64,000 nucleotides of DNA from Gammaproteobacteria bacterium (lineage in GTDB: Bacteria > Pseudomonadota > Gammaproteobacteria > Xanthomonadales > Rhodanobacteraceae), in contig JAJPHQ010000091.1 in NCBI GenBank assembly GCA_021325195.1, forward strand, positions 15,223 through 79,222. The letters are read 5' to 3'. The translations under genes and the position numbers were made by a program. The notes beneath the pieces were generated by a model. That model had not been told where the DNA came from, searched no databases, and was given only the letters and a program-made list of their open reading frames with translations. Numbering within the stretch: the stretch's first letter is position 1; every line of letters starts with the position of its first letter. Shown here piece by piece: positions 56,347 through 64,000 of this stretch.

Positions 56347-57111
56347 TCATCCGCGCCCACAGGAATCCGGCGAGGCCGGCGGGGTGTCGCCCGAAAACTT
56401 CACGGCAGTCGCGCCGGAGACGGTGCCGCTGACATGGGCCTGGTCGCTGATGTACAGATTGACCTTGCGCTCGAAGGTGAGCGGGCCGTTCACGGTCGCG
56501 CCGGGGCCGATCACGATGCGCGGCACGCAATCGCTGCCGAACGAGATGCCGAAGAAGCCCCCGTGCTTGGGCTTCTTCACGGTGATGCCGCCATCGACCA
56601 CCGACTTGCCGGTGATGTCGATGTTGCCGTTGGCGGTTTCGATGCCTCCGCCCACGTGCGCATCGGTGACCGCGATGTGGCCGTTGACGTTGGTCAGCTT
56701 GCCGCCCACCGTTGCACCCGGTGCGAGGGTCATCGAACCGTTCACGGTGGTGGCGTCGTGCTTGACCTGGGCGCCTGCAGCCAGTGCGATCGAACCGTTG
56801 ACGGTGGTCGCGTCCCGTGCGACGGCGTTTTCCTCCAGCCTGATGGAACCGTTGACGGTGGTGGCATCGCCGACCACGCCGCCGCCGGCGACGGTGACGG
56901 AGCCGTTGACGGTGGTGGCATCGCCGGCCTTGGCGTTGGCGCCCACGCGCACCGCGCCGTTCACGGTGGTGGCGTCGCGCACGCTGGAGCCGGACGCCAC
57001 ATCGATCGAGCCCAGCACCTTGCTGTTGCCGTCGCCCATGTCGCAGGCAGCCACGGACAGCGGCAAGGCCAGCATCACGAACAGATGGGTACAAACACGA
57101 GCAGCCTTCAT
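56347..57111 (-). CDS. Lipoprotein with 18-19-residue DATTVNGS repeats (predicted beta-helix; bactofilin/adhesin-like)
   Basis: ORF 56347..57240; start at MKAARVCTHLFVMLALPLSVAAC (lipobox). There are five exact DATTVNG units and two degenerate ones with an 18-19-aa period. Confidence 0.65.
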   Translation of the reverse strand: MKAARVCTHLFVMLALPLSVAACDMGDGNSKVLGSIDVASGSSVRDATTVNGAVRVGANAKAGDATTVNGSVTVAGGGVVGDATTVNGSIRLEENAVARDATTVNGSIALAAGAQVKHDATTVNGSMTLAPGATVGGKLTNVNGHIAVTDAHVGGGIETANGNIDITGKSVVDGGITVKKPKHGGFFGISFGSDCVPRIVIGPGATVNGPLTFERKVNLYISDQAHVSGTVSGATAVKFSGDTPPASPDSCGRG

Positions 57112-57263
57112 GACCGACCTCCCACGCGCCGGATGCGCGTCACCCAGTGCATCGTGCCCCGGGGCGCCGCGTTTGCCAATAGGACCAAGGTCACCGTGAC
57201 AACTGTCAGGTCGCCGTTGGTGAACCGTTACAATGCGCATTTCCGCCTGCCCGACGTCACGCC

Positions 57264-58103: not shown

Positions 58104-58628
58104 ATGTCGCCCAACGTGATCGTCCCCGTGGTGGTGGCGCCGCTGATCGTGTGGCGGCTGTACATGCGGCTGCGCCGCAACTTCGGCCGCCAGCCCATCC
58201 GGCCGAAACGGATGTGGACGCGGGTGGCGATCCTGTCGGGGGTGATCGTGCTGTTCGCGCTGGATGGCCTGCGCGGTCCGCTGCTGGCGGAAGGCCTGGT
58301 GGTGGGGCTGCTCGGCGGCGTGGTGCTGGGCATCGTGGCGCTGCGCTTCACGCATTTCGAGATCGACGGCACCAACGACTACTACACGCCCCATCCCTGG
58401 ATCGGCCTGGGCCTGACCGCGCTGCTGCTGGCCCGGCTGCTGTACCGCTTCATGGCGCTGTATCCCCTGATGACGCATGCGGCGGCGGCCGGCGGTTACG
58501 CCGCCTACCAGCGCAGTCCGCTGACGATGGCCATCTTCGGCCTGCTGTTCGGCTACTACATCGCCTACTACGCGGGCCTGCTGATCCACCACCGGCGGGT
58601 GCTGGCGGGATTGCGCGCGAAGGCGTGA
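58104..58628 (+). CDS. Hypothetical membrane protein (174 aa)
   Basis: ORF 58038..58628 (TTG at 58038); first ATG at 58104 (MSPNVIVPVVVAPLIVW). It has four hydrophobic segments. No family recognised. Confidence 0.5.
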   Translation: MSPNVIVPVVVAPLIVWRLYMRLRRNFGRQPIRPKRMWTRVAILSGVIVLFALDGLRGPLLAEGLVVGLLGGVVLGIVALRFTHFEIDGTNDYYTPHPWIGLGLTALLLARLLYRFMALYPLMTHAAAAGGYAAYQRSPLTMAIFGLLFGYYIAYYAGLLIHHRRVLAGLRAKA

Positions 58629-58639
58629 CGGCAACGCCT

Positions 58640-59145
58640 GCAAGGCGTGTCAAAGCCGATTTTCGGTCGGGTCGGGAAAGGCGCCGGAGCGGTGGCTGGA
58701 AGGCGAACGCGGACCTGAGGCAGTGTTCGCGTCCCCCGGGCCCTCACCCCACCCCATCCCCGATCGAGACGGGCTCGATTCCCGGGGAACCTCTGACTTT
58801 GCTCACTCGTGATGTTTCCGACCCTCGGCTCCCTTGCGTCAAGGGGCGGCCAAACCGTTGCCCTGCAACGGTTTGGCGGGAGTCGTGGAAGTGTGAGCTT
58901 GTGGGAACGAAGCACGAACTGGCCGGTTGATCGGATGTTCCCTAGCAGGTTGTTGAGAAAGCGCAGTCCTGCACTTGACTCGCGCCGTCCATGGCGTTCG
59001 CCCTGCGGGCCAGCTTCGCTGTTCGCATCCGCTCCTGCGGATGCAGTCTCAACGTCGCGAGTCCGGCACATGTCCGGACTCGCTCCCGACGGATCATCAA
59101 GCGCTTGTGCGCTTGATCCGCGGCGGCCCATCCGTGGCCCGCACC
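58640..59145. repeat. ~500-bp non-coding island of REP-like hairpins
   Basis: Stems include GCCAAACCGTTG/CAACGGTTTGGC (~58848-58876), CATCCGC/GCGGATG, GCGAGTCCGG/TCCGGACTCGC and GGATCA.CAAGCGC/GCGCTTGATCC. The 37-nt module at 58975-59011 is shared with 48144-48180. Only low-complexity shadow ORFs are present. Confidence 0.75.
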
Positions 59146-59169
59146 AGCAGGGTGTTTCTCAACACCCTG

Positions 59170-59171
<2 letters not shown>
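59146..59171 (-). terminator. Hairpin at the glnB stop codon
   Basis: The 11-bp stem AGCAGGGTGTT/AACACCCTGCT has a TCTC loop, and its right arm overlaps the stop. There is no U-tract, so function as an intrinsic terminator is uncertain. Confidence 0.4.
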
Positions 59172-59661
<490 letters not shown>

Positions 59662-59716
59662 CTACCCGCGCCCCGGCCGGGCCTCTAACCTGACCGGGAC
59701 GCATCGAGGCAACGCC

Positions 59717-59965
59717 ATGATCGACGTGCACGTCATAGACCAACTCGCGCACCGCCTTGCGACCCTGGTCCCGCCGGGGCTCGCGCAGGCGCGGGAGGAC
59801 ATGGAAGCCAATTTTCGGGACGTGCTGGCGCACGGATTGCGCCGCCTCGACCTCGTCACCCGCGAGGAATTCGATGCCCAGCGCGCGGTGCTTTCACGCA
59901 CCCGCGAACTGGTGGCGCAACTGGAAGCGCGCGTGGCCGAACTCGAGGCCGCGCAGGCGAAATAA
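59717..59965 (+). CDS. ubiK: Ubiquinone biosynthesis accessory factor UbiK (YqiC/BMFP family)
   Basis: ORF 59597..59965; start at MIDVHVIDQLAHRL. Coiled-coil …LDLVTREEFDAQRAVL.RTRE.L..LE.RV.ELE. Divergent from glnB, as is common in gammaproteobacteria. Confidence 0.75.
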   Translation: MIDVHVIDQLAHRLATLVPPGLAQAREDMEANFRDVLAHGLRRLDLVTREEFDAQRAVLSRTRELVAQLEARVAELEAAQAK

Positions 59966-60100
59966 GCCGCGGAATCTTCAGCCCCGCTGCGTGTGCCGCG
60001 CGTTTCCGTGTGCGGCGCAGACGGGCTGCCGCGCGCCGGGGGAGCCATGCCGGGCGGCGCGCGGCGTTTTTTCCCGGGGGATTGCGGAAATGCGCCAGCC

Positions 60101-61615
60101 ATGAGTCTCGCCGTCGCCCTCACCCGCGCATCCGAAGGCGTGGCCGCGCCGCTGGTGACGGTCGAGGTGCACCTGTCCGGTGGCCTGCCGGGCACGTCGA
60201 TCGTCGGGCTGCCGGAAGCCGCGGTGCGCGAGGCGCGCGACCGCGTGCGCGTGGCGATCCAGAACACGCAGTTCGAATATCCCAACCGCCGGGTCACGGT
60301 GAATCTCGCCCCGGCCGAATTGCCCAAGGACGGCGGCCGCTTCGACCTCGCGATCGCGCTGGGCATCCTCGCCGCCGGCGGCCAGTTGCCGCGCGAGGCG
60401 CTGGATGGTTGCGAATTCCTGGGCGAACTCGCATTGTCCGGCGAGCTGCGTCCGGTCACCGGCGTGCTGCCGGCGCTGCTGCGGGCGCGGCGCGGCAAGC
60501 GCTGCGTGATCGTGCCGGCCGAGAACGCGCGCGAAGCGGCATTGTTGAGCGATGTCGAGGTGCGCGTGGCGCGCACGCTGGCGGAGGTGTGCGCGCACCT
60601 GCGCGGCGCCGAACCGTTGTCCGCCCCCGCGGCCGACGCGGGCGGCGATGCGATCGACGATTATCCCGATCTCGCCGACGTGCGCGGCCAGTTGAATGCG
60701 CGGCGCGCGCTGGAAATTGCCGCGACCGGCGGCCACCACCTGCTGATGATCGGTCCGCCCGGCACCGGCAAGTCCATGCTGGCGCAGCGCCTGCCGGGCA
60801 TCCTGCCGCCGCTCACCGAAACCGAGGCGCTGGAAGCCTGCGCGGTGCGTTCGGTGGCGGGCATGCCGTTCGAGCCGGGCGGCTGGCGCCGCCGTCCCTA
60901 TCGCGCGCCGCACCACACCGCGTCGGGTGTCGCGCTGGTCGGCGGCGGCTCGCATCCGCGCCCGGGCGAAATCTCGCTGGCGCACCGCGGTGTGCTGTTC
61001 CTCGACGAACTGCCGGAATTCGACCGCCACGTGCTGGAAGTGCTGCGTGAACCGATGGAATCGGGCCGGATCGTGATCTCGCGCGCCGCGCGCCAGGCGG
61101 AATTCCCGGCGCGGTTCCAGTTGGTCGCGGCGATGAATCCCTGCCCCTGCGGTTATGCCGGCGATCCGAACGGCCGCTGCCGCTGCACGCCCGACCAGAT
61201 CGCGCGTTACCGCGGAAGGATTTCCGGCCCGCTGCTGGATCGCATCGACCTCACCGTCGAGGTGCCGAGGCTGTCGCTGGCCGAGCTCGATGCGGGACGC
61301 AACGCGGGCGACGAGGATTCCGCGACGGTGCGCAAGCGCGTGATCGATGCGCGGCAACGCGCGTTGCAGCGCGCCGGCAAACCCAATGCCGCGCTCGACA
61401 CCCGCGAGATCGAACGCGACTGCGCGCTGGGGATCAGCGAACGCGTGCTGCTGCAGCGTGCGATGGACAAGCTGGGCCTGTCCGCGCGTGCCTACCACCG
61501 GGTGCTGCGCGTCGCGCGTTCCATCGCCGATCTCGCCGGCAGCGAACGCATCGGCCGCGAACACCTGGCCGAGGCGTTGCAATACCGGCGGCCAAACGTC
61601 GTCGGGCAGGAGTAG
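60101..61615 (+). CDS. comM: YifB/ComM family Mg-chelatase-like AAA+ ATPase
   Basis: ORF 59993..61615; start at MSLAVALTRA. Has a Lon-protease-like N-domain, Walker A GPPGTGKSMLA and the C-terminal …AYHRVLRVARSIADL. Confidence 0.9.
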   Translation: MSLAVALTRASEGVAAPLVTVEVHLSGGLPGTSIVGLPEAAVREARDRVRVAIQNTQFEYPNRRVTVNLAPAELPKDGGRFDLAIALGILAAGGQLPREALDGCEFLGELALSGELRPVTGVLPALLRARRGKRCVIVPAENAREAALLSDVEVRVARTLAEVCAHLRGAEPLSAPAADAGGDAIDDYPDLADVRGQLNARRALEIAATGGHHLLMIGPPGTGKSMLAQRLPGILPPLTETEALEACAVRSVAGMPFEPGGWRRRPYRAPHHTASGVALVGGGSHPRPGEISLAHRGVLFLDELPEFDRHVLEVLREPMESGRIVISRAARQAEFPARFQLVAAMNPCPCGYAGDPNGRCRCTPDQIARYRGRISGPLLDRIDLTVEVPRLSLAELDAGRNAGDEDSATVRKRVIDARQRALQRAGKPNAALDTREIERDCALGISERVLLQRAMDKLGLSARAYHRVLRVARSIADLAGSERIGREHLAEALQYRRPNVVGQE

Positions 61616-61646
61616 CGAAGCGAATCCCGCCCGACGATTTTTTGGC

Positions 61647-62822
61647 TTACGGCCACACCCGGTGGGCTGGATCGAACTCGACGGTCGCTCTGGTCACGGC
61701 GCGCACGCCGAAACCGCACACGGCCAGCGGGCCTTCGGCCATCGGTTCCAGCCCGAACGCCTGCTCGATCTCGACCTCGTTGATGGCGGCGGTGATGAAG
61801 GCGCCCAGGTTCATTTCGGTGGCGCCCAGGTAGATCGCCTGCGACAGGTGCCCGGCATCCAGGATCACCGCGCGATACGCCTTGGCATGGTTGCGGTATT
61901 TCCAGAAATTGCGTTCGAAACGCGCCACCAGCGCGATCTGCAGCGGCGCGGCGGCGTAATACGCCTGTGCCGCGACGAAACGGCGCGCAAGTTTTGCCGC
62001 CTCGTCGGCATCGAGCGCGCGCAGCGGTTCCAGCGCGTGCTCGACCGGGTGGTAGTGATACAACCCCGGCGCGATGCCTTCGACGCGCTGCACCAGCAGA
62101 TACGCCTCGACCGCGTGCAGGCCGCCCGCCGACGGCACGCCCTTCTTCAGGAGTTGCACGCCCGGCGCGTAATCGCTGACCGCGCGCGCACCGAACGCGC
62201 GGTACAGCACCGCGGAAAACGCATCGAACGACAACGGCGCGGGATCGTAGTTGCGGCAGGTGACGCGCCGATCCATCAACGCATCCAGCGGCGACGGCGA
62301 CGGCTTTTCCAGCGGCAGGCGCGAGGCCGCCGGCGCGCGCTCGCCGACCACGGGCGGCGCCGGCCCCAGCCGCTCCAGGAACGTCTGCGGACTGGCTTCG
62401 GAAAACAATCGCTCGACGGCTTCCGAATCCACGCCGCGCCAGCGGGCATGGCGATGCGTGACGGCGGACAAGCCTCGCCAGTGCACCGCGCGCACGGCTT
62501 CGTCCGCCTGCGCGAACTGGCGTGATATTTCGTCGGCCGGTGCCTGCACGATCAGCAGGCCTTTCGCCAGCAGCGCCTCGAGCACCGCCCGCGGATGCCG
62601 TGACGACAACTCATCCAGCGATTGCCAGTGCCCCGGCGACAGCGCGCCCAGCGCGGCGACCGCGGCCGCATCCAACGGAATCTCTTCATCGCAATGCGCG
62701 GCCAGCGCCAGCCAGCCGAGGCGTTCGCGCACGCCGGTTTCGCCCAGCGCCAGTTCGACAAGGTCGAAGTCAATGGATTCGCGCGGCTCGACCAGCACCA
62801 CCGCGCAGCGGCGGACGCGCAT
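61647..62822 (-). CDS. SagB/ThcOx-type (nitroreductase-fold) dehydrogenase with ~190-aa N-terminal extension; putative peptide-maturation dehydrogenase
   Basis: 391-aa ORF. C-terminal half motifs: DRRVTCRNY, VPSAGGLHAVEAYL, FWKYRNHAKAYRAVILDAGH. No YcaO-like gene is adjacent within the window. Confidence 0.75.
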   Translation of the reverse strand: MRVRRCAVVLVEPRESIDFDLVELALGETGVRERLGWLALAAHCDEEIPLDAAAVAALGALSPGHWQSLDELSSRHPRAVLEALLAKGLLIVQAPADEISRQFAQADEAVRAVHWRGLSAVTHRHARWRGVDSEAVERLFSEASPQTFLERLGPAPPVVGERAPAASRLPLEKPSPSPLDALMDRRVTCRNYDPAPLSFDAFSAVLYRAFGARAVSDYAPGVQLLKKGVPSAGGLHAVEAYLLVQRVEGIAPGLYHYHPVEHALEPLRALDADEAAKLARRFVAAQAYYAAAPLQIALVARFERNFWKYRNHAKAYRAVILDAGHLSQAIYLGATEMNLGAFITAAINEVEIEQAFGLEPMAEGPLAVCGFGVRAVTRATVEFDPAHRVWP

Positions 62823-62833
62823 GAATCGGCCGC

Positions 62834-63094
62834 TCAGGGTGAACCGCTGAGTTCGAGACGCTTCTCCACACGCTCGATGCGCTCGACAAGGCGGTCGATC
62901 GCAGCTTGCTGGCGCGCGTGATCGCCATACAGATCGGCATAATCCGCATGGCTCTTGGCTTGGCCACGCTCAAGACTGGCAAGGCGAAGCTTCACATCCC
63001 GAAATTCGTCGTGCATTTCGGAACGCACGGTCTGCATCTCGTTCCGCAGGCTCTTCAGCATTTCCAGGATCAGGTTTTCGACGTTCTCGCTCAT
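62834..63094 (-). CDS. Hypothetical 86-aa coiled-coil protein, upstream of and co-oriented with the SagB-type gene
   Basis: ORF 62834..63139 (TTG at 63139); first ATG at 63094 (MSENVENLILEMLKSL…). Heptad-like charged helices. It ends 12 nt before the SagB-type ATG. Confidence 0.5.
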   Translation of the reverse strand: MSENVENLILEMLKSLRNEMQTVRSEMHDEFRDVKLRLASLERGQAKSHADYADLYGDHARQQAAIDRLVERIERVEKRLELSGSP

Positions 63095-63150
63095 GGCGCT
63101 TTCGACGGCCCCGCGCGGCAGGGTTCTATGGTACCGCAAGCGGGCTGGAT

Positions 63151-63166
63151 TGGCAGGGCGCTTGCA
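63151..63166 (+). promoter_or_regulatory. Near-consensus sigma54 (-24/-12) promoter upstream of the 96-aa peptide gene
   Basis: TGGCAGGGCGCTTGCA compared with TGGCACG-N4-TTGCW: GG (63152-53) and GC (63164-65) are separated by exactly 10 nt, with a single mismatch in the defined positions. The -12 GC lies 36 nt upstream of the ATG at 63202. Confidence 0.6.
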
Positions 63167-63201
63167 TGAGCTCTGTCAGTCCCTCAACAAGGTGAACCGC
63201 C

Positions 63202-63492
63202 ATGGCCGATTCGAAGTTGTCGCGCGAGCACTCGCTCGCCCTGTTGCACAAGCTCGCCACCGACGACGGCTTCCGCAGCCGTTACGAGCAGAAGCCTGCC
63301 GCCGCGCTGGCCGAGCTGGGCGTGCCGCTGGAAACCATCGTGAATCTCAAGGCGTCGTGCGTTGCCCCGACCAGCTTGGCTCAAAAAGAACTTTTCCGGG
63401 CTGCGCATACTGAATGGGCGACCGCAGCGACCGAAGAATGCCTGATGATGAATTGGCCGTCGGTAAAGATGGGTTTCGGTTCCGGCGATTAA
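63202..63492 (+). CDS. 96-aa peptide with nitrile-hydratase-leader-like (NHLP-like) N-terminus; candidate RiPP precursor
   Basis: MADSKLSREHSLALLHKLATDDGFRSRYEQKPAAALAELGVPLETIVNLK… matches the NHLP leader pattern (helix, D..F+..L…P.AAL.E.G..L). AAGGTG lies 7 nt before the ATG. Cys53 and Cys80 sit in the C-terminal half. Confidence 0.6.
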   Translation: MADSKLSREHSLALLHKLATDDGFRSRYEQKPAAALAELGVPLETIVNLKASCVAPTSLAQKELFRAAHTEWATAATEECLMMNWPSVKMGFGSGD

Positions 63493-64000
63493 TGCACTCC
63501 CCCGAGTGATTTCAACCTGCTCAGACGGGGCGCCAGCCAAGCTAACTCCCTTGCTCGAGGCCACGCATCCAGGAATGTCGCCAGGGAGTTTTGGGCCTCC
63601 GCTTCGTTGCCCAGAGCCCTCGACAGCTCCGACGCACGCAGGAGCGCCAGATCGGATTCGGCAACATTGAAGGGCTCCAGCATCAACTGCATGTTGGCTT
63701 CCCCATAAGCACGTCCACGATGACTGGACAGCCAATGGGCTTCGGTCAACGCGGCGGATGAATCGTGGGCGTCCGCATTGGCTTCCATCAGTGCGACGTG
63801 GGTGAGGTACAACTCGCTGCCGTTGACCAGCGGCTTCAGGATTGCCAATGCATCTTTGGGCCTGCCGGAAGCTCGTTCGATTTCAGCCCGCACCACGTCG
63901 AGCAGGTTGTCCAAGATCGGCATGTCTGCGTCGGACGCGGGGCCGGCGATGGCAAGCGCCCGCTTGGCGAGATCGACGTCACCCGCGTGCGCGGCCAGAT
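63489..64000 (-). CDS. C-terminal fragment of a helical-repeat (TPR-like) protein; 5' end beyond the window
   Basis: The frame is open from 64000 down to the stop at 63489-91 (…LAAHAGDVDLAKRALAIAGPASDADMPILDNLL…SRLKSLGGVH*). Its stop codon overlaps the stop of the 96-aa peptide gene. Confidence 0.55.
   Translation of the reverse strand, partial: LAAHAGDVDLAKRALAIAGPASDADMPILDNLLDVVRAEIERASGRPKDALAILKPLVNGSELYLTHVALMEANADAHDSSAALTEAHWLSSHRGRAYGEANMQLMLEPFNVAESDLALLRASELSRALGNEAEAQNSLATFLDAWPRARELAWLAPRLSRLKSLGGVH

Follow-up and report, generated by a model that had tools for sequence, protein, structure and literature searches.

A dehydrogenase, peptide and cyclase cassette in a Rhodanobacteraceae genome reads as a putative peptide-linked cGMP signalling module

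A stretch of 64,000 nucleotides from a gammaproteobacterium of the family Rhodanobacteraceae (GCA_021325195.1, contig JAJPHQ010000091.1, positions 15,223 to 79,222; here called the window) ends in a locus that an initial annotation had described as a candidate uncharacterised peptide-maturation locus. Three genes are adjacent there and match the families TIGR04511 (a SagB-type dehydrogenase), TIGR04509 (a small peptide related to the nitrile hydratase leader peptides, NHLP) and TIGR04510 (a cyclase with tetratricopeptide repeats, TPR). By these profile matches the locus is one cassette of the TIGR04509/TIGR04510/TIGR04511 family. The earlier description holds as far as the triad and a SagB homologue without YcaO are concerned, but the locus reads better as a peptide-linked cyclic GMP (cGMP) signalling module, because the cyclase is of the type of XC_0250 from Xanthomonas campestris and because relatives carry a gene for a protein with cNMP-binding and GGDEF domains beside it. 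The identity of the parts is secure, and the function is inferred. The reading that we tentatively favour, at a little less than an even chance, is that a peptide matured by the dehydrogenase is the cognate input of the receptor cyclase and feeds cGMP and then cyclic di-GMP (c-di-GMP).

The locus was rightly recognised as belonging to a cassette already known from computation, and is therefore not new in kind. What is new is that the cassette is tied to the cGMP pathway of XC_0250 and XC_0249, that a coiled-coil open reading frame (ORF) is removed from it and that a fourth gene is added. Very few worked examples of bacterial cGMP signalling exist, and XC_0250/XC_0249 is the best known. The peptide and dehydrogenase pair would be a candidate input for the cyclase, and the cyclase a signalling enzyme rather than a maturase. 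The cassette is also a clean case for the role of an azoline-oxidase-type flavoenzyme without YcaO. The family is large: upwards of 1,800 homologues of the cyclase match at E<=1e-20, and the dehydrogenase has 311 cluster representatives (50% identity) at E<=1e-30.

Conservation of the cassette

The dehydrogenase gene (61647-62822, minus strand, 391 aa) scores 481.6 bits (cutoff 240) over profile positions 1-380 of 380 against TIGR04511, which is named 'putative peptide maturation dehydrogenase'. The peptide gene (63202-63492, plus strand, 96 aa) scores 55.6 bits (cutoff 34) against TIGR04509, which is named 'NHLP-related RiPP peptide' (RiPP, a peptide made by ribosomes and modified after translation). 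The third gene enters from the window edge. The C-terminal 170 residues of its product are encoded on the minus strand from 63489 to beyond 64000 and score 81.4 bits over the last 119 positions (695-813 of 814) of TIGR04510, named 'putative peptide modification system cyclase', for which the cutoff of 400 refers to the whole protein. The triad of NCBIfam/TIGRFAMs models that the initial annotation named is thus found, with the C-terminal end of TIGR04510 as its third part, and all ORF positions given there agree with an ORF check. The definitions of TIGR04509 to TIGR04511 are computational (NCBIfam/TIGRFAMs), and a literature search found no paper mentioning any of the three.

For comparison, one genome per species was scanned for relatives of the dehydrogenase, and of the 282 found the best 79 were taken as related loci, with as much as 10 kb of flank on each side. 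All 79 belong to Xanthomonadales/Lysobacterales (Rhodanobacteraceae, Dokdonella, Rudaea, Tahibacter and others), the best 80 of the 282 matches in the scanned genome contigs are all Rhodanobacteraceae, Dokdonella and similar, and the closest relative of the window dehydrogenase is 89% identical to it. The loci contain 88 cyclases, 108 peptide genes and 94 dehydrogenases. The gene order is always cyclase (+), peptide (-) and dehydrogenase (+). Convergent peptide genes follow 80 of the 88 cyclase genes, and a divergent peptide gene stands before the dehydrogenase gene in 83 of 94.

The cyclase and peptide genes are packed tightly at their 3' ends. In the window these ends overlap by 4 nt (63489-63492). 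In the related loci they lie at most 30 nt apart in 63 of the 80 pairs and overlap in 35, with a median spacer of 3 nt. Because a spacer so short leaves no room for terminators, the two transcripts probably overlap as antisense RNAs. Past the point that corresponds to the window edge, the relatives continue with the rest of the cyclase gene, the cNMP-GGDEF gene and aceA/aceB, in this order. In a clustering of neighbouring genes, the cNMP-GGDEF gene is the single additional partner that is conserved. All the remaining genes that recur nearby have housekeeping roles (aceA, aceB, a LysR regulator, XdhC, a molybdopterin oxidoreductase, a Na/H exchanger, comM and glnB).

Only the cut of the third gene at the window edge would favour an ordinary cluster for thiazole/oxazole-modified microcins or linear azol(in)e-containing peptides (TOMM/LAP) with its YcaO gene just beyond base 64000. 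Such a cluster is extremely unlikely given what follows the edge in the 79 loci, where the next genes are those just listed, no conserved neighbour cluster is a YcaO, and a single-seed jackhmmer search of limited sensitivity (E. coli YcaO against six-frame translations of all loci) returns nothing at E<=10. The initial annotation had itself raised a YcaO past the edge as an objection to its proposal. None is found within 10 kb on either side in the 79 loci; therefore the objection that this is an ordinary TOMM fails, the ordinary cluster is refuted for the relatives, and the SagB homologue without YcaO stands. The locus also differs from TOMM/LAP systems, in which YcaO accompanies the dehydrogenase, by having no invariant Cys/Ser/Thr core, while the Lys-Tyr motif of the dehydrogenase is present.

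The part of the locus inside the window shows no YcaO, radical-SAM enzyme, lanthionine synthetase, protease or exporter, which confirms the earlier statement that these enzymes and a leader peptidase are missing there, and none of them is conserved within +/-10 kb of the 79 loci. PADLOC gives marginal matches only, namely PycC at E 0.007 and, for the cNMP domain, Pycsar effector models at E 4e-6. These reflect shared domains, not membership in a defence system.

Relation of the cyclase to XC_0250

XC_0250 of X. campestris has 886 aa, of which residues 32-191 form a cyclase domain and residues 413-625 contain TPRs, and its residues 1-220 are reported to make cGMP from GTP (PMC3770947). The adjacent gene encodes XC_0249, a cNMP+GGDEF protein that cGMP makes more active as a diguanylate cyclase, and the mutant phenotypes of XC_0250 overlap those of this cGMP receptor. 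The input signal of XC_0250 is described as 'as yet unknown' (PMC3770947).

The nearest full-length relative of the window cyclase (L001:6559-9216) has 885 aa and scores 888.6 bits on TIGR04510. Its residues 24-167 match class III cyclases weakly, and it has TPRs from about residue 420 onwards; an N-terminal cyclase domain, which the initial annotation suggested looking for in the full helical-repeat gene, is present in this relative. Residues 1-210 of XC_0250, taken from a character-recognised alignment (Suppl. Fig. S1A of PMC3770947) in which a few letters may be misread, score 396 bits on TIGR04510 positions 1-194, and the same region of the L001 cyclase scores 297 bits. Their identity is 55% to the L001 cyclase and 70% to that of L082, a contig on which cyclase, dehydrogenase and peptide lie together. 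On these matches, the TIGR04510 family contains a reported guanylate cyclase and adjoins its reported receptor, and the window protein would be an XC_0250-type receptor guanylate cyclase whose cyclase domain lies outside the window. The cyclase family that the initial annotation named as part of the triad agrees with the C-terminal match of the helical-repeat protein to TIGR04510. Its view that the triad is wholly uncharacterised by experiment is not, since the family includes XC_0250, an experimentally studied member for which cGMP synthesis is reported.

A gene for a protein of about 350 aa lies directly upstream of the first cyclase gene in 41 loci, as located by a rough gene caller. Pfam finds the cNMP_binding and GGDEF domains in it, and its best PDB match is 5h5o. 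Residues F51, E68, H76, N123 and E124 of 5h5o correspond to F73, E90, H98, N145 and E146 of XC_0249 at an offset of 22, and because this offset is constant, 5h5o is the XC_0249 domain or a near-identical one; the structure code printed in PMC3770947 is 4KG1, versus the 5h5o matched here. F73, E90, H98 and E146 are kept in 38-39 of 39 homologues, and N145 is Ser. This cNMP-binding and GGDEF gene belongs to the module as its fourth conserved gene; in the genome of the window it would be located past base 64000.

The likeness to XC_0250/XC_0249 thus covers the length (886 versus 885 aa), the order of cyclase domain and TPRs, and an adjacent XC_0249-like gene with four of the five cGMP-contact residues. 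The differences are the Ser at N145 in the relatives and the fact that PMC3770947 mentions no peptide, dehydrogenase or transmembrane helix. No paper was found that links the XC_0250/XC_0249 pathway to NHLP peptides or SagB. Two protein searches with cyclases as queries listed no Xanthomonas protein, a result that is uninformative because the database seems to be without X. campestris: the exact cNMP domain of XC_0249, used as a query, found no protein of more than 64% identity in a collection of 5.8 billion sequences.

All 68 complete cyclases have a hydrophobic segment of 19 residues at about residues 210-250, and in 58 it is the only one. The 15 residues before the segment contain 4.0 Lys and Arg on average, and those after it 1.9. 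With one transmembrane helix and more positive charge on its N-terminal side, the cyclase domain should be cytoplasmic, and about 630 of the 885 residues, including the TPR part, should be periplasmic. The sequence is conserved in the cyclase and juxtamembrane parts, where the majority-residue fraction is 0.68-0.81, but not in the TPR region (440-720), where it is 0.34-0.58.

Cassette arrays and distant relatives

Many genomes have two or three cassettes in tandem. The arrays duplicate whole cassettes or cyclase-peptide units, some of which are without a dehydrogenase of their own, and they have one effector gene only. Between paralogues of an array, the catalytic domains of the cyclases are 71-98% identical and the TPR regions 22-43%, and the catalytic domains exceed 94% identity in three array pairs. 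These pairs, in L054:835-9553, L047:833-9553 and L044:6957-18635, have catalytic domains that are 94-98% identical and TPR regions that are only 24-32% identical. The array pattern points to gene conversion of the output domain, to rapid divergence of the sensor domain, or to both.

Pairwise distances were compared over 59 cassettes. The distances of the TPR region, the dehydrogenase domains and the peptide halves correlate with each other (Spearman 0.54-0.74). For the cyclase catalytic domain there is no such correlation with any of these (-0.09 to 0.11).

Dehydrogenases that are only 31-36% identical to the window protein still pass TIGR04511. In L082 and L085 the dehydrogenase gene lies beside a small NHLP-like ORF and a TIGR04510 cyclase gene; the small ORF of L085 has no NCBIfam match at E<=0.001. 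In L083 (9001-13276) the dehydrogenase and a small NHLP-like ORF lie beside a soluble cyclase/STAND-ATPase/TPR protein that has no transmembrane helix. Because it is found in members so distant, the link of dehydrogenase, peptide and cyclase-TPR protein is old and robust. The three genes of L083 are on one strand, and its cyclase is a soluble cyclase/AAA_16/NB-ARC/TPR protein rather than a member of TIGR04510. This cassette is flanked by IS66 and IS110 transposases. Two further relatives were set aside as uninformative about the cassette: L081, which is a short contig, and L086 (625-6733), which encodes a fusion of an AraC-type helix-turn-helix domain with a nitroreductase (619 aa). Around the L086 gene is a RiPP-like cluster of another kind, which includes a PatG-type protease, a TPR-sulfotransferase and a methyltransferase.

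The peptide

The peptide gene is present in nearly every related locus. Its dN/dS ratio (non-synonymous to synonymous rate) against the window copy is 0.14-0.30, next to 0.15-0.21 for the dehydrogenase, so the 96-aa ORF on which the peptide assignment was based is conserved and under purifying selection. The NHLP-like leader proposed for it is upheld by the TIGR04509 match, not by the canonical NHLP leader model TIGR03793, on which the peptide scores 12.3 bits against a cutoff of 50.9.

In an alignment of 106 non-redundant peptides, the leader takes up about residues 1-50, and conservation is strong over roughly the first 48 of these. L18 and R25 never vary, and D21, D22, F24, P32, A35, L36 and G40 are each kept in more than 79%. 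Farther on, an L59-A-x-K62 motif is kept in 74-96% and an M83-x-x-P86 motif near the C-terminus in 68-84%. Of the 106, 53% have Cys53 and 40% have Cys80, some contain no Cys whatever, and no Cys, Ser or Thr is invariant among them. A second class of peptides ends instead in a short hydrophobic tail.

The two halves of the gene evolve differently. In 12 ungapped close orthologues, codons 1-50 have a dN of 0.057 and a dS of 0.50, and codons 51-96 a dN of 0.39 and a saturated dS of about 2.9, so that the C-terminal half changes about seven times faster at non-synonymous sites than the leader. The peptide has a conserved leader and a fast-diverging C-terminal half, and such fast change is typical of precursor cores. 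The roughly six-fold gap in dS between the halves suggests homogenisation of the leader or exchange of the core.

The NHLP/Nif11 precursors (TIGR03793; proteusins, prochlorosins) share with these peptides a conserved leader and a variable C-terminus, and their leader is distantly similar (weak TIGR03793 and NF038399 matches). The peptides differ from them in scoring below the TIGR03793 cutoff, in having no conserved Gly-Gly motif and no C39-peptidase exporter of the ATP-binding cassette type, and in that the peptide gene is always on the strand opposite to its enzyme in the relatives.

Conservation along the whole peptide, including L59-A-x-K62, and the absence of a cleavage motif or exporter could also suit a cytoplasmic redox sensor. 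A small folded NHLP-like protein would then be reversibly oxidised, or bound in a redox-dependent way, by the flavin mononucleotide (FMN) dehydrogenase, and the pair would modulate the cyclase from its cytoplasmic side. The existence of a soluble cyclase variant fits as well. We consider this quite unlikely, as the divergence of the peptide and the dehydrogenase tracks the TPR region and not the cytoplasmic cyclase domain, and the C-terminal half of the peptide diverges fast relative to the leader, as is typical of precursor cores.

The dehydrogenase

The motifs reported earlier for the C-terminal half of the dehydrogenase (DRRVTCRNY, VPSAGGLHAVEAYL and FWKYRNHAKAYRAVILDAGH) are all found, and the profiles agree with its assignment as SagB/nitroreductase: TIGR03605 (SagB domain) matches residues 199-372 and Pfam Nitroreductase residues 185-372. 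The FMN motif is RRVTCRN. W307-K308-Y309 is invariant in an alignment of 44 dehydrogenases and aligns with the WKY of ThcOx. Studies of BcerB and McbC reportedly give this Lys-Tyr motif a catalytic role, and together with the azoline-oxidase fold it would suggest a heterocycle-like substrate.

An AlphaFold2 model built with an alignment of 94 diverse representatives has a predicted local distance difference test score (pLDDT) of 97.3 and a predicted template modelling score (pTM) of 0.93; without the alignment the pLDDT is only 35.6. The protein is laid out as a beta-sheet and three-helix domain (residues 1-95), a helical linker (98-152) and the SagB/nitroreductase domain (about 178-391). In the model, the strands and three helices of residues 1-95 follow a winged-helix-like order, and four helices lead from them to the flavin domain. 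ThcOx, BmdC and McbC rank highest in a Foldseek search, and the structural alignment with ThcOx, of about 400 columns, exceeds the flavin domain of about 200 residues. By the model, the enzyme belongs with the azoline-oxidase-type flavoenzymes and carries a further domain at its N-terminus.

The N-terminal domain of about 190 aa is conserved across the 94 representatives, which are at most 53% identical, and sequence searches find no relative of it in PDB or Pfam. Its modelled form is consistent with a peptide-recognition domain similar to the RiPP recognition element (RRE), a reading based only on topology and on the long ThcOx alignment. The putative reaction of the enzyme is a two-hydrogen oxidation of the peptide.

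The azoline oxidases (SagB, BcerB, McbC, ThcOx, BmdC) share the nitroreductase/FMN fold with the dehydrogenase and are its best matches in sequence and structure. The R-x-T-x-R, PSxGG and Lys-Tyr motifs are common to both, and ThcOx has an N-terminal extension as well. They differ in that the system in the window is without a YcaO partner, a Cys/Ser/Thr-rich core, and a docking or E1-like protein.

The Lys-Tyr motif and the azoline-oxidase fold are also what could be expected if the protein with cyclase homology modified the peptide, as a nucleoside triphosphate-dependent activator or cyclase in place of YcaO, and the SagB-type enzyme then oxidised the resulting ring or activated intermediate to give a secreted natural product. 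The NCBIfam name of the cyclase family implies such a role. The class III cyclase fold does use nucleoside triphosphates, and the three genes are strictly linked. Such a maturation role for the cyclase is nevertheless unlikely. The isolated cyclase domain of XC_0250 makes cGMP, and mutant phenotypes overlap those of XC_0249 (PMC3770947); the gene for the cGMP-binding effector is conserved beside the cyclase gene. About 630 of 885 residues lie beyond the transmembrane helix, the peptides have no invariant Cys, Ser or Thr, and the catalytic domains are homogenised among paralogues that serve different peptides.

Proposed role of the cassette

If the matured peptide is the input of the cyclase, as we tentatively propose, the N-terminal domain of the dehydrogenase would bind the peptide leader, and the FMN domain would remove two hydrogens in the C-terminal part of the peptide without an azoline made by YcaO. 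The matured peptide, or a fragment of it, would reach the periplasm and be recognised there by the TPR sensor of the neighbouring cyclase. The cyclase would then alter its cGMP output, and cGMP would activate the XC_0249-like diguanylate cyclase and change c-di-GMP. In an array, each cyclase-peptide pair would be a separate input channel to a shared output.

The pherotype systems ComC/ComD and AgrD/AgrC have a hypervariable signal and sensor, a conserved receptor output and adjacent genes. By analogy, the mosaic pattern of the cassettes resembles such peptide systems: the output domain and leader are conserved, the sensor and peptide C-terminus are diversified, the genes are adjacent and there is one effector. 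The cassettes differ in that the output is a nucleotide cyclase instead of a histidine kinase and in that no processing or export protein is present. A fuller version of the proposal, possible but on the doubtful side, combines a YcaO-independent SagB-type chemistry that is new for the family (e.g., alpha,beta-dehydrogenation, or oxidation at M-x-x-P) with a peptide that is the ligand of the cyclase and with pherotype-like channels to one cGMP to c-di-GMP output. The peptide would then be the missing input of XC_0250.

Several points weigh against the peptide as cyclase input. No exporter or leader peptidase is seen in the loci, and no signal peptide or GG cleavage motif in the peptides, and these gaps leave the peptide without an evident route to a periplasmic sensor. 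Most of the 90 residues of the peptide are conserved, with no invariant Cys, Ser or Thr, and it could be a small folded protein. The correlated distances can arise from shared cassette history alone. The soluble variant in L083 argues for cytoplasmic sensing, at least there. The comparison with XC_0250 covers its residues 1-210, its published layout and, of its chromosomal neighbourhood, XC_0249 only. The cGMP biochemistry rests on one paper (PMC3770947). That paper continues to be cited, and a literature search found no notice of its retraction, although other work of the laboratory has reportedly come under scrutiny since.

The absence of export machinery from the loci and the soluble L083 variant would also fit a regulatory relation, in which the cGMP/c-di-GMP output of the cyclase controls the peptide and dehydrogenase pair at the level of expression or of activity, or is simply co-regulated with it. 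The peptide would then act elsewhere, e.g., as an intracellular effector or antimicrobial, and not as the ligand of the cyclase. Cyclase/STAND/TPR proteins do occur beside RiPP-like genes (TIGR03903 'TOMM system kinase/cyclase fusion', HaaT and AfsR-like matches), and the cyclase and peptide genes, which converge and overlap at their 3' ends, suit transcriptional interplay. This relation is somewhat unlikely in view of the arrays, where every peptide has a cyclase of its own, with a diverging sensor and a catalytic domain that stays near-identical, and where cyclase-peptide units exist without their own dehydrogenase.

Coiled-coil ORF and other features of the window

In the window, the cassette differs from others of its family by the truncated cyclase gene and by a foreign coiled-coil gene. 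This ORF (62834-63139 from a TTG, or 86 aa from an ATG at 63094; minus strand) has no family match. It ends 11 nt from the dehydrogenase ATG and is probably co-transcribed with the dehydrogenase gene. Neither tblastn nor blastn finds it in the 79 related loci, and in the closest relatives its slot is taken by a second peptide paralogue on the peptide strand. Homologues (36-78% identity) occur on 13 metagenome contigs, none of them near a dehydrogenase, peptide or cyclase gene. The closest (L087:1757-2011, 78% identity) has type IV pseudopilin-like genes on one side and an RND efflux pump on the other. The G+C content of the ORF region is lower, about 0.60. Though it represents a real gene family, the ORF is an interloper in the cassette and not one of its conserved members; the suggestion that it is part of the system is contradicted by its absence from all 79 loci (0/79) and by its occurrence elsewhere without the triad genes.

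Positions 63095-63201, read directly from the sequence, separate the peptide gene from the divergently transcribed coiled-coil/dehydrogenase unit. A ribosome-binding site, AAGGTGA, precedes the peptide ATG. A 13-nt direct repeat, at 62835-62847 (CAGGGTGAACCGC) and 63188-63200 (CAAGGTGAACCGC), places a copy of the ribosome-binding region of the peptide gene beside the start of the dehydrogenase gene. A second peptide gene, since lost, may have left it behind, but a repeat of this length is too short to be told from chance. Searches of 58500-64000 and 61500-64000 matched no Rfam family and found no sigma-70 consensus promoter or convincing terminator.

The far flank was described as housekeeping (comM, ubiK, glnB), and YifB/ComM, UbiK and P-II are indeed encoded there. 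Elsewhere in the window, an ORF of 297 aa on the minus strand (56347-57240) contains many DATTVNGS(I/V) repeats; its product looks possibly beta-helical, and exported or cytoskeletal.

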